A program made the translations under genes and the position numbers. The notes beneath the pieces are model-generated. The model was not told the DNA's origin. It did not search any database and saw nothing but the letters and a program-made list of their open reading frames with translations. DNA of 63,992 nucleotides, the filler included, from Octopus bimaculoides (Eukaryota): the NCBI RefSeq assembly GCF_001194135.2. It is 8 parts of 7 records of this genome, joined end to end, with 100 filler letters (N's around TTAATTAATTAA, not from the genome) between each part and the next. Parts side by side here need not be neighbours in the genome. Positions count along the whole stretch, not along the records: positions 1 to 10,787 come from NC_069001.1; positions 10,888 to 19,904 come from NC_068987.1; positions 20,005 to 25,539 come from NC_068988.1; positions 25,640 to 33,748 come from NC_068981.1; positions 33,849 to 48,780 come from NC_068985.1; positions 48,881 to 55,677 come from NC_068982.1; positions 55,778 to 61,467 come from NC_068987.1; positions 61,568 to 63,992 come from NW_026331166.1. One strand, written 5' to 3'. Positions 2,840 through 63,120 of the stretch are shown here, piece after piece. Numbering within the stretch: the first letter of the stretch is position 1; every line of letters begins with the position of its first letter.

Positions 2840-2884
2840 GGACCACTGATGAGGTCACAGAAGTGTGACGAAAGAACTCTGGCC
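2840..2884 (+). ncRNA. Type I hammerhead ribozyme motif (minimal helix III)
   Basis: ggacca-CTGATGA-g-GTCAC(agaagt)GTGAC-GAAA-g(aa)c-TC-tggcc. Helix II is a perfect 5 bp, the triplet is CUC, and helix I is ggacca/tggcc with one bulge. Confidence 0.7.
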
Positions 2885-3074
2885 GAAATAAGATTAAGAT
2901 TAAGATTAATGTAATATAAAGCTGAGAAAAAAAAAAAAATTAACACCAAATATACAGTGCGTGTGTTTTTATTGGCTAAACTGGCAATATGACCATCCCC
3001 AAGTACAACAACAATAAAATAACCACTAATAGAAAATAACTAATTATAAAACCCTCTTATGCCAGTGTCACATT

Positions 3075-3245
3075 AATAGCACCCAGTACACTCTTTAAAG
3101 TGGTTGGCATTAGGAAGTGTATCCAGCCATAGAAACTATGCCAAAACAGACAAAATGGAACCCAGGTAGCTCTGCAACTGGCCAGCTCCTGTCACACCAT
3201 CCAACCTATGCCAACATGAAGAATGAACATTAAATGATGATGATC
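3075..3245 (+). mobile_element. RTE-LINE 3' end or RTE-tailed SINE fragment
   Basis: gcacccagtacactc...ggttggcattaggaag...ccaacctatgccaacatg...ttaaatgatgatgat; the same tail ends the RTE LINE at 29292. Confidence 0.75.
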
Positions 3246-57705: not shown

Positions 57706-60594
57706 CCCAGTGGGGAGAATTATAAAGTTGATATCAGCGAGATTTTAACAGAGAATGTTGAGAGTCAATACACAATTAAATGTTTTTTTACGTTCTCTTG
57801 TAGGGTTTCAAGTTGTTGTACTGAACGTAAAGTCTCACTTCAATTTTTATTAGCATTAATATTCATTCTACTGAACTTGAATGAAGCTTTCGAATGTCGA
57901 ATAGTGGATGACTGTCATAACAGAAAAAAATGGTATATAAAATCTGTTCATCTTGGTTCCCAAAACAAGGCCAATTTATATTTTATAGATAATAATGTAG
58001 TTAAAGGCAAACACAGGTAAACATGAATGTCTACAAAAGTGTACTCAGTTATGTACTCAATTTGTAAATAGTTCTATGTACAAAATATATTTTTTTCTTT
58101 TTTATCTAAAGAATATCCAAATATGTATTGTGTGGACTCAAACTTGGCTAGTGTCACACTCTTGAAGGTATAAATACATAACTGGTTAAAATACAATTTC
58201 ATGTGAACAAATGAAGTTGATAATAACATCAATTATTTCTAAAACAACAATTATTACTAATAATTAGATAGTTGCTGGTTTTTAGAATACATAGCTGAAT
58301 CACAGTTACTAAATTCAACTGCACAGAGACGAACTAAATACTGCAAACCTTAGAGTCACAGAAATTAAAAAGAAATATGAATAAAAAAATATTTTAATAT
58401 ATCAATATAGGTTGGATTAACATGTCACTATGATGCTCTTAGATCGAACGTTAATCAACAAAATAAGACTATATCAAAGGCACTTGATCTTTCCGCAGTT
58501 TAAAGAAAAGAAATAGAAATATTGATGGGCAAATCATATTGATGTAATTGATGTTATAGTAAAATAAACTAGCAAATAATATATTCAAAGACAAAAATAC
58601 ATTTCGCAGCAGTGTGTATGAAAGAAATGCTGGCGGTACGTCTGTTACCCATACATCGCTATATTCTATAGAACATTGGTGTAAATATTTGCTTTGAATA
58701 TACATAGGATTAAAATGTCCATGTCAGCGAGTGGGAGCTGGTTTTTTTCTTCTTCTGCAGCAACATAATTATCTTACGGATTAACTTAAGTGAAAGTGGA
58801 TTTACGCATCTATAAAGACATGGGAATATCAATGACAACACAGAATGATAATAGAAGTTTGCAATATGATTGAAAAGAGTAAAACTAGGAAGAGAAATTG
58901 ATTCACGAAGTAACCACACCTTTATTGATTCCTTTAGCTTTCTTGAAAAAAGTATTAGCAAAACCTATATACTCAAGATGAGCAGTAATGTATGCTACCG
59001 TCTTACAATAATATCAACATCAAATACCAATAACTACACCATAGATATTTAATTATAATATATACATACATAAGAAAAATCACAATGAGATAAGATGATC
59101 TTGTTATTGTTTTAAACCAGGTCACTGACGTTCAAGTAAACCTATGATCACAATTGTTCAAGTCGTTATATTCATGTCTTTTTATTGAGACATAAAAGAT
59201 CGATGACTACATTGTCTGATGATTCCGTCCTCACCAAAGGTGGTAGGATACAGCTCAAGAGAGATTTCAGTTGCCACTTTAGTATTTAAGAATCTATGTA
59301 GAAGCATTATTTTTTTAATTCTGTTTCGTCAAAATGCTTTGGATTTTATGGAAGTAAGATTAGCATTTCGCCCACTTGTTTTAATTTACTTATTAATGAA
59401 TATGACTGCGTAAACAACCAAGACATTAGATTCTATGATTAAGTTCTGATTTACATATAAATTAGATTTGTGTTCCCATGAAGAACAATTTTAATTATAA
59501 GGGGTGGGAAAAATGCTATTATTCTCCGGTGTATTTCACATGTGAAATCTTCTTTTCTTTTCTATTGTTGTATAGCTGGTCGACGCACTGACTCAACAAG
59601 ACACGGTAAATAGGTAATCAACGGAAAGATTATGTGCACTTTACATATACAGTGATCACAATAGACTATACTGCCACTAACTTCAGAACCACACTTGGCT
59701 CTCATGAAGGCAGTTGCATATTTCAGATTATATTCATAGGTCAATAAACTCTATAAGACATTTAATCTGGTGTCCAGTGGTACTGCTTATAACAATATAG
59801 TGTTTATGTACTTTGATATATTGACGTTGATACAGATTATTTACTATCATCCCTCATAGTCTGCTGAGAAAAATAGTCAGACATACCAGTATACACAATC
59901 AGATCCCATGGTAGAAGAGGATATTGTTTTAGCAGTAGGAAATTATAACTTACATGTTTCTTCGTATTAACACAAAATACAAAATCTGTCCGATCGCCTG
60001 ATTTAAATGCCGTAATCTATCGGTTAGAAATTGCTGTAGGTGAATCGCGCCAAGACCTGGTTCTAAGTACATTTGCAACGTGATATGTATCTGAATTTTT
60101 GCTGTATATACAAAAATTAACAACTTGGTTGACAGTAGCGGAAATATATAAGTAGTACCATTGAGAATAGAATTAGAGAGAAAAAAAAAAGGAGAATGAT
60201 TATAGACAGTGTCAGCATCTTTAGATGATTACATTGATTTACTTAAATATTTTTTGAAGGCCTATGCGTTTGCATACACAGAATACAGATAAAATTATAC
60301 AGTACATTGTGTATTCAATCGCAGCCAGTACTTGAACGCATAACAATAACTACGCAACTTATACAAAGCCAACACTTTCTACCAAAATAAATGAATTAAC
60401 ACTTCATATAGCGTATAGAAACGACGAAACACAAGCCAACCAGAGGCACAGCAATGGAAATCATGAAACAGTATAAAAACAGGTGTGATAAGGCAAAACT
60501 CAAAATTTTTAAAGCTTGTAGAAACACACCCTCAAGGTATTCTGAAATGTACCTTGAGTCAAAAGAAGTGCTTATTAGATTTTTGGAAACGTTG

Positions 60595-60782
60595 ATAATG
60601 ATGATAATAATGATAATGGTGATGATAATGATAATGATAATTATGATAATGAAGATGATGATAATGATGATGATGATCATGATTATGTTTAGGAGGAGGA
60701 GGAGGCTAAGGAGGTTGTGGATCACGACGACAACGATGCTGATGGTGATAATGATGTTATGATGACGATGACGACGACGGCG
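60595..60782. repeat. (GAT/AAT/GAC/GAG)n compound trinucleotide repeat
   Basis: Direct reading. Confidence 0.9.
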
Positions 60783-63120
60783 AAATCAGCGGTGATGACG
60801 TCAAGGAAAAGGATGGGAAAAACGATTTGAAGCATCCAATCCACTATTAGTGGGACAAAGAATTTAACAAAATCATAAGGGTGTCACCAATTTGCATTGG
60901 GAAAATTAGAAATGTGAGAAAGAATTTGAGTGGGAGGGAGATAAAACTTGCGGGTGGATATAGTAGAGAGGATATAGTAGAGACAACCGGTTTACCGGAT
61001 TGTGTAAAAAATTCATAGTTAAAAAAAGATGAGGAAAGTAAAAGCATATCTTATACAATAGAAGATGCAAAATGCTCCTCATTCTAAGCAGCGTGAAACT
61101 CTTCGATATGTAGCATGATTAAACTAGATACAACATAAATACTATGTAGCAACACAATAAAAATAAAAAATAGTATTAGTAATAATAATAATAATAATAA
61201 TAATAATAATAATAATAATAATAATAATAATAATAACAAAAATAATAATAATAATAATCGTAAACACACGTGTTACATCAAAACCAAACCATCTTCGAAC
61301 CCCAAAACACCATGTACAGAAAAATTACAAACAGATTAAATAACACCGGTATTATTACACACAAGAATAACAACCGAGAAGTGCGTACTGTAAGCTTGTT
61401 ACGAAAAAAAATACGAAGATCTGAACGTGCAAAACAATCTGACAACAGAAATAAACGAACCGGTACCNNNNNNNNNNNNNNNNNNNNNNNNNNNNNNNNN
61501 NNNNNNNNNNNTTAATTAATTAANNNNNNNNNNNNNNNNNNNNNNNNNNNNNNNNNNNNNNNNNNNNTATATATATACACACATACACACATATACATAC
61601 ACATACACACATATGCATATACACATACATGCACACACATACTGGGCAGGTAAAAAGGTATGAAAGGTTTTGAAATTTTAATAATCTTAAAATTCACGAT
61701 TGAAGCAGCGAACACTGATTGTGGACTTATATTATGAAAATGAATTATTTAATACTCAACGCTCTTTATGAAGTTTGAGTCCACCCTGTTATAATACGCA
61801 AGGTAAACCAATTTTCGTAGCACAACAGAACTGTTACTCTATTGAGACCATTGTTAAGAAATATCTTACTTTTTCTCTCGATGTGTAGCAAAATCCGTTT
61901 CTTGCCGACAGGTTTCAAATCAGCTTTCATCCGAGTCTCACAACTATAGTTATGAGTTATGCTTTCATCTACATCATAAAACAATGCAATTTAATCTGCT
62001 GGAAGAGATGGAGATAACAGATAAAAGTTATTATTAAATATGGTGACATTCTGCAACCGATTAGCTGGATTTGCATAAATAGTGGCGCATGGTTCGCTTG
62101 ATATTTATTTACATAAAGCGCTTAATTTTCACTCTATGCTTATCGTTATACTTACAGGCACTAAATGGAGTGAGATTTCTCCAAAGATTAGTTCGATTCT
62201 GATACATACAAAGAAGCCGATATAGACGCACACAAGTGTATTTATGTATGTATGCAAATTTTTCGATTTCTATTCATACATGTATATATGTATGAATCTC
62301 TGTTATGTATATATATATATATNNNNNNNNNNNNNNNNNNNNNNNNNNNNNNNNNNNNNNNNNNNNNNNNNNNNNNNNNNNNNNNNNNNNNNNNNNNNNN
62401 NNNNNNNNNNNNNNNNNNNNNNNNNNNNNNNNNNNNNNNNNNNNNNNNNNNNNNNNNNNNNNNNNNNNNNNNNNNNNNNNNNNNNNNNNNNNNNNNNNNN
62501 NNNNNNNNNNNNNNNNNNNNNNNNNNNNNNNNNNNNNNNNNNNNNNNNNNNNNNNNNNNNNNNNNNNNNNNNNNNNNNNNNNNNNNNNNNNNNNNNNNNN
62601 NNNNNNNNNNNNNNNNNNNNNNNNNNNNNNNNNNNNNNNNNNNNNNNNNNNNNNNNNNNNNNNNNNNNNNNNNNNNNNNNNNNNNNNNNNNNNNNNNNNN
62701 NNNNNNNNNNNNNNNNNNNNNNNNNNNNNNNNNNNNNNNNNNNNNNNNNNNNNNNNNNNNNNNNNNNNNNNNNNNNNNNNNNNNNNNNNNNNNNNNNNNN
62801 NNNNNNNNNNNNNNNNNNNNNNNNNNNNNNNNNNNNNNNNNNNNNNNNNNNNNNNNNNNNATATATATATATATATATATATATATACAGATATACATAT
62901 ATCTACATGAATAAACATGTATATCCTATATATTTACTAATATCTATCGATATATATATGTATATGTATGTAAGTATGTATGTGTATATATATATATATA
63001 TATATATGTATATACATATGTATACCTATATATATATGTGTGTATAAATACACGTAATATACATTGGCAAGCATCCCGTGTCGTCGTTGTCTATGTATTG
63101 TAATTGGTGTGAGAAGAGCA

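Follow-up and report, generated by a model that had tools for sequence, protein, structure and literature searches.

The window analysed here, a stretch of 63,992 nucleotides composed of eight parts of seven records of the Octopus bimaculoides genome (GCF_001194135.2; 60,160 called bases), carries a set of hammerhead ribozyme motifs, ten of which had been listed in a sequence-only reading, seven as complete and three as degenerate or truncated. Descriptor scans were run at three tolerance levels, each set against local dinucleotide shuffles of the window. The strict descriptor, defined by the core CUGANGA, a helix II of at least 4 bp and a helix I of at least 3 bp, returned two motifs (2846+ and 44821-) and none in 60 shuffles. 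When the core and each stem could contain a single mismatch, at a score of at least 14, the relaxed type I descriptor returned five (2846+, 14338+, 17913+, 44821-, and 47323+), compared with a mean of 0.19 and a maximum of 1 in 100 shuffles, and gave 0 matches on the reversed and complemented window. An energy-scored scan tolerating up to two core mismatches added 55913+, making six (shuffle mean 0.67, maximum 3, n = 60), and no scan of the window yielded a good motif that the list lacked. The excess over shuffled sequence that had been proposed is therefore real, albeit somewhat flattered because the descriptors were relaxed once the motifs were already known.

Three of the motifs have an intact core, with zero core mismatches. 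The minimal type I hammerhead at 2843–2882 (+; core 2846–2852), detected in both descriptor scans and in the energy-scored scan, has an extra G, a 6-bp helix II and a 1-bp helix III; its predicted cleavage site lies 3' of C2879, and a (TAAGAT)3 tail comes next. The type I hammerhead at 14324–14382 (+; core 14338–14344; relaxed and energy-scored scans) shows a C-A mismatch at the base of helix II, a 3-bp helix III and a helix I with three G-U pairs plus a 5-bp outer extension. In the repeat that carries it (14283–14600, +), which begins right after (TA)n, the sequence behind the motif spans no fewer than 200 bases, in contrast to the 3'-terminal position of the family described next. The third, at 44769–44828 (-; core 44821–44815), was found in all three scans, is the only one of four motifs searched locally to match Hammerhead_1, weakly, and is built from a 7-bp helix I, a long irregular helix II and a near-palindromic helix III.

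Two further motifs depart from the intact core by a U at position 6 (U6). The minimal hammerhead at 17908–17944 (+; core CUGUUGA at 17913–17919), recognized in the relaxed scan, combines an extra A, a 4-bp helix II, a palindromic, loopless helix III and a 5-bp helix I; its U6 is 17916 and its H17 is 17939. It lies within the 3' end of a high-copy repeat (17770–18024, +) that ends at (TA)n and, as seen by read and contig mapping, reaches further 5' than 17770. An alternative core register, UUGAAGA, was rejected by inspection, as helix II would then shrink to 2 bp and helix I disappear. A second copy of this family (47314–47452, +; motif 47319–47354; relaxed scan and alignment) is 79% identical to the first over 119 nt, is 5'-truncated at helix I and sits directly behind a SINE-like (short interspersed nuclear element-like) repeat. 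Directly behind this copy, in turn, lie frames (47450–47720, +) that resemble the restriction-type endonuclease found at the C-terminus of R4/Dong-type LINEs (long interspersed nuclear elements), with no Pfam hit. The candidate at 2650 proved to be the 5' part of another copy, of a second subfamily (2600–2661, +; alignment), with the helix I strand and the core CUGUGGA at 2654–2660 ahead of the N gap at which it ends.

The remaining candidates are poorer. The motif at 55908–55953 (+), detected in the energy-scored scan only, is a decayed minimal hammerhead in which U16.1 is C and helix II is broken by the loss of two pairs. It is part of a dispersed repeat that begins after (AAT)n, and the only protein match to its frame, a spurious 51-residue Octopus bimaculoides protein with 74% identity, represents a further copy of this repeat; it reads YQLK where the window has YHAK, a difference that would fit an unbroken helix II, the codons not being certain. 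Three listed motifs (4548-, 45915+, and 61901-) pass neither the relaxed nor the energy-scored scan. The first, really located at 4564–4604 (-), has the core boxes and a Hydra-like helix III with helix I missing, and its alignment with a decayed RTE-type LINE 3' end is not significant (score 29, shuffle maximum 34). At 45910–45955 (+) the first core box stands alone, followed by an 18-bp tandem tail, and is marginally like 44821 (score 32 versus a shuffle maximum of 29); at 61888–61939 (-) the core is changed and additional bases precede GAAA. The original list thus survives in part: 2846, 14338, 17913, 44821, 47323, the decayed 55913 and the gap-cut 2650 remain; the seven motifs called complete resolve into three with an intact core, two with U6, the decayed 55913 and 4548-, which has no helix I; among the three called degenerate, 2650 is a real family member and 45915 and 61901 drop out. 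Its coordinates were correct within a few bases, 4548- excepted.

The Rfam check of the window that had been suggested gave no hammerhead at the gathering threshold, 5S rRNA being the sole match, and no hammerhead appears among the weak matches listed (150 of 178). In a local Rfam search with four of the ten motifs, Hammerhead_1 was recovered only for 44821, at 15.2 bits (cut-off 34, E 0.34), and no motif reached the gathering score of the Rfam hammerhead models, this being the best value. Minimal hammerhead variants are poorly covered by Rfam models. Folding z-scores do not set the motifs apart from shuffles, none lying beyond z -1.7. That no fold stands out from shuffles and no Rfam cut-off is reached, together with the three or four of the ten motifs that fail every scan, would suit the view that AT-rich, repeat-rich DNA has produced every motif by chance. 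We nevertheless regard this as highly improbable in view of the observed five and six motifs against 0.19 and 0.67 expected, a comparison that excludes a chance origin for 2846, 14338, 17913, 44821, and 47323, and because, in a high-copy family, it is the motif that is conserved (see below). Of the ten motifs on the list, five or six are genuine minimal hammerheads of type I.

An all-against-all comparison of the 170-base neighbourhoods of nine motifs gave a single clear family link, that of 17913 with 47323 (score 129 versus a shuffle maximum of 39), and three further pairs were marginal; mapping and alignment assign 2650 to the same family. By this comparison, about five sequence-unrelated hammerhead families hold up, at the low end of the five to seven independent families first proposed; should the failing motifs be decayed family members, the number could reach eight. 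Every motif is single, with distances of 15 and 29 kb, in window positions, between the nearest members of one family. Self-comparison of the window revealed no paired direct or inverted ends, of the pseudo-long terminal repeat (pseudo-LTR) kind, around any motif. Tandem units of 170–400 bp, each with a hammerhead, were not found, and a 220-bp tandem repeat that was checked as a possible retrozyme contains no hammerhead motif. Among the predicted monomer folds, that of 2846 is the only one in which the core stays open while both helix I and helix II form (pair probabilities 0.91–0.99); five of the six motifs, 14338 included, are predicted to misfold, and the U6 core is predicted to pair with GAAACG, giving a plain hairpin. 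Same-family partners are probably too distant for the dimer that minimal hammerheads need, because they lie 15 and 29 kb apart in the window.

From this anatomy and from published work, we infer that the motifs likely come from several families of Penelope-like elements (PLEs), as tail ends (pseudo-LTRs) left by 5' truncation, and are likely inert here. In the parent PLE, the ribozyme would lie close to the 3' terminus, and dimers held through the palindromic helix III would cleave tandem transcripts. Reverse transcription would begin at the 3' end and usually halt early, so that the hammerhead would be the part most often left behind, and solitary copies, having no partner, would decay. Minimal hammerheads are indeed described from PLE end repeats, with many families per genome, mostly as single copies from truncated elements; they do not cleave as monomers and do so at a low level as dimers (PMC4209133). 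The window motifs share with them (Cervera and De la Pena 2014, PMC4209133) the type I topology, the solitary, scattered copies and the multitude of families, as well as three marks: an extra base after A9, G10.1-C11.1 and a 1-bp palindromic helix III. This agrees with the likeness to PLE minimal hammerheads pointed out in the sequence-only reading. The extra base and G10.1-C11.1 occur in the same four motifs (2846, 17913, 47323, and 55913), while the palindrome of helix III is exact in 17913 and 47323 and carries one mismatch in 2846, 14338, 44821, and 55913. All three marks are thus united in 17913 and 47323; 44821 and 14338 differ. Two further differences from the published set (PMC4209133) are the consensus, CUGANGAH there and with U6 in one window family, and the linked open reading frame (ORF), none of which was found for the window motifs.

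A second group of PLE hammerheads, that of the Hydra clade, provides a parallel for other motifs. In Octopus bimaculoides itself, Hydra-1_Obim has its hammerhead at 2403 of 2507 bp and prefers (TA)n (PMC8557442, File S2). Motifs 14338 and 4548 share with this clade (Craig et al. 2021, PMC8557442) a helix III of 3–4 bp with a loop of 1–2 nt; a hammerhead about 100 nt from the 3' end and a (TA)n target are further features common to the window and the clade. The stems listed for Hydra-1_Obim (PMC8557442) were found, by eye, in no window motif, and word searches were matchless. For some motifs, chiefly 14338, another origin has been considered, namely 5'-end ribozymes of LINE-type elements that would release the element from read-through transcripts in the manner of the hepatitis delta virus-like ribozymes of R2. 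Such a role would accord with the extended helix I of 14338, with its place near the apparent 5' edge of a repeat, and with its downstream sequence, which resembles what an octopus LINE of the Dong/R4 type has on its 5' side. We find it quite unlikely, however, since a protein search with the downstream frame gave nothing among 44 candidates, the reverse transcriptase (RT) remnant found another 430 bases downstream is weak and may belong to a different element, and the layout of 14338 fits the Hydra-clade PLE hammerheads.

Several observations weigh against the reading as inert PLE ends. Pfam searches of 300 of the 301 stop-free frames of at least 55 residues, covering the window outside the 11.7–14.1 kb satellite and frames up to 35% masked, detected LINE RT, Tc1 and hAT-like remnants and no PLE RT or GIY-YIG remnant, although a missing PLE ORF is expected because only short end fragments are present. 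A phmmer search with the frame upstream of 17913 returned one repetitive, spurious protein, a chance match, and ten short window words had no match in the consensus set of Craig et al., which comprises Naiad, Chlamys, and Hydra families only. Read mapping covers one of the about five families, and a 3'-end position in a 5'-truncated repeat beside a microsatellite is likewise documented for the 17913 family only. Motif 14338, about 50 nt behind (TA)n and followed by 200 nt or more of non-simple sequence, is not obviously at a 3' end. The RNA run described below has equal depth on both strands and was examined to about 6%; ordinary RNA-seq can miss ribozyme ends. Of the other searches, one in the Atlas gave only scores below 0.8, and pattern scans revealed no relatives in viral contigs, metagenome contigs or prokaryote genomes; two viral matches to a SINE word were dismissed as GC-rich chance matches unlike the window.

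The 17913 family, the one family mapped to reads, was followed in DNA runs of three organisms (A, B, and C) and in one RNA run of A, with the stretch 17770–18025 as query. Matches were obtained with 13,097 contigs in A, 218 in B and 235 in C. In organism A, the summed contig depth amounts to about 3 million at the motif, as against about 30–60 for most listed single contigs; the sum is not a copy number, contig overlap inflating it up to about 30-fold, and the family can only be placed somewhere between thousands and tens of thousands of copies. Depth climbs from 5' to 3' and falls at about 18019, ahead of the (TA)n that ends the family about 80 nt behind the motif, and the gradient with its final drop is therefore the pattern of a 5'-truncated retroelement end. 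In organisms B and C, likeness to the 17913 stretch mostly begins at helix I.

The motif is more uniform than the sequence behind it. Only one of 36 places in 17909–17944 varies at 15% or more, and that place is H17, where C is changed to U in a third and where C, U or A, never G, occur at this level. By comparison, 16 of 61 places vary in 17945–18005 (Fisher P 0.002, for stretches common to all subfamilies). The 139 bases upstream of the motif are also little variable in organism A, one subfamily only mapping there. The stems of the U6 family are invariant at the 15% level and loop II varies in length, a G being inserted there in many B and C contigs; the 47323 copy has one G-C to G-U change, and no double (compensatory) change was seen in the family. 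At position 6 itself (17916), all four runs lack a second letter at the 15% level, below which up to 15% A would stay hidden, and coverage is thin in B and C. Because of this uniformity, U6 is a state of the family and not decay.

The sequence-only reading had written the core as CUG(A/U)NGA and had left unremarked the departure of U6 from the established consensus. Neither the two searchable supplements of PMC4209133 nor the File S2 table of PMC8557442 contain CUGUUGA. The nearest natural parallel is the A6C variant of phage Bcep176, which cleaves at less than 0.1 per minute (PMC3088659), an A6C mutant losing several orders of magnitude of activity at 0.3 mM Mg2+ (PMC7151607). A natural change at core position 6 is common to both systems (PMC3088659; PMC7151607); the phage case is one sequence with low activity in Mg2+ and rescue by Mn2+, whereas the window change is to U and belongs to a high-copy animal repeat present in three organisms. 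A6U occurs in the available text of neither PMC3088659, where A6C is reported, nor PMC7151607. A literature search for hammerhead with A6U gave a twister-ribozyme paper only, and the variant may be in the catalogue of Lunse et al. 2017, which according to a review (PMC6765202) covers small PLE hammerhead variants. The U6 core was thus not found in print.

In the RNA run, 3,526 reads among 12.9 million records (about 6% of the run) match the 17913 stretch. Ends pile up nowhere along it, 17939/17940 included, there is no step in depth at that point, and depth peaks across the cleavage site. The RNA data argue against efficient cleavage and are compatible with some, because the library is strand-balanced and about 6% of the run was examined. 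No joint of the 3' end to the 5' end was detected in the three DNA runs or the RNA run over the 256 bases mapped. A loose end of 96 RNA reads at 17909 corresponds, by eye, to the sequence upstream of the 2650 copy in 26 of 28 letters. Separately, 272 RNA reads have the same foreign sequence on their upstream side, joined at 17927, in loop II, and represent a well-expressed transcript carrying a copy truncated inside the ribozyme.

These data bear on the proposal, made in the sequence-only reading, of non-autonomous ribozyme families with self-cleaved or circular RNAs. Its fullest form would make the motifs non-autonomous non-LTR retrozymes or SINE-like elements that are transcribed, cleave themselves and give small circular RNAs, the single copies being monomer offspring of arrays elsewhere. 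Retrozymes are non-coding, high-copy elements with type I hammerheads and kinship to PLE ends, all features shared with the window (PMC7229834; Li et al. 2026 preprint); they derive from PLE ends, and in Xenopus their monomer copies are spread evenly over the chromosomes (bioRxiv 10.64898/2026.07.22.740005). Coding sequence upstream of 17913 was not found, and the family occurs in RNA. Described retrozymes, however, are tandem, carry canonical hammerheads and form circular RNA, minimal hammerheads being assigned to PLEs (PMC7229834), whereas the window copies are single and minimal, with no tandem motif, a 220-bp tandem repeat free of hammerheads and no circle joint in the 256 mapped bases, which a longer unit would escape. 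Retrozymes are accordingly an unlikely source, and the proposal itself is not supported by the single motifs or by the 17913 family, in which neither the joint nor ends at the cleavage site were seen.

Within the PLE reading, two views of U6 can be set against each other. The ribozyme may have been already dead when the family multiplied, its uniformity coming from few masters, a view compatible with a PLE origin to which we give somewhat less than even weight. It is consistent with the lowered activity of position 6 variants (A6C; PMC3088659, PMC7151607), with the hairpin predicted for the U6 core and GAAACG, with the cut not seen in RNA and with the likewise low variability of the 139 upstream bases in organism A. 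It does not readily account for the contrast between one variable place in 36 and 16 in 61, for a single variable place that is H17 and never G at 15% or more, or for a likeness that starts at helix I in B and C. Alternatively, and more doubtfully, the family could be one of the most abundant octopus retroelement ends, whose U6 hammerhead is under selection across species, as a switch-type or a protein- or metal-dependent ribozyme or as a non-cleaving handle for RT, in thousands of transcribed copies. As a successful family with a weakened core, the U6 family could serve as a natural test of whether Penelope elements need cleavage.

The density of motifs had been called unusual. Intact-core motifs number 3 in 60 kb, or one per 20 kb. 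Published animal totals correspond, given the genome sizes, to one hammerhead per 75 to several hundred kb, and the window is several-fold denser, having been chosen for its richness and scanned with different descriptors. These totals are about 9,000 in Xenopus tropicalis and about 4,000 in the coelacanth (PMC4209133), and more than 6,000, in 16 families, in Acropora millepora (PMC7229834). In O. vulgaris, PLEs occupy 191 Mb, or 6.83%, with 190 families, 31 of them recently active, in an annotation whose main text leaves hammerheads unmentioned (PMC13282606). By our estimate, such a share predicts about 4 kb of PLE per 60-kb window, equivalent to 8–16 end fragments of 250–500 bases. The density is therefore high among animals and probably ordinary for this genome, since the PLE share of octopus genomes accounts for it; the claim of an unusual density for such a genome is not supported, one window giving no genome rate. 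That PLEs carry hammerheads, that these are diverse and that they occur in Octopus was already known, and density and diversity add little, because a PLE-rich genome should leave such remains. For the whole giant squid genome, 235 Hammerhead_1 matches are reported; if the window is typical, standard Rfam annotation misses nearly all such cephalopod motifs.

The surroundings of the motifs are repeat-rich animal DNA, with many microsatellites and SINE-like families in many copies. An RT remnant in the window has its best named relative in Octopus bimaculoides (55% identity). The 220-bp unit forms about 3.7 tandem copies with about 90% identity at 10888–11698 and is continued at 11700–14050 by a 2.3-kb degenerate (ACGA/GTAC)n satellite, partly inverted and without hammerhead. 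At 8584–8702 (-), a full-length, single 5S rRNA sequence (106.6 bits) abuts a SINE-like repeat (8413–8574) and is possibly a retroposed copy. A long hAT-like transposase remnant (DUF4371) with several near-open frames extends over 51156–52765 (+), and one SINE-like family forms clusters of several neighbouring copies, oriented both ways, at 38748–39384 and 47865–48639.

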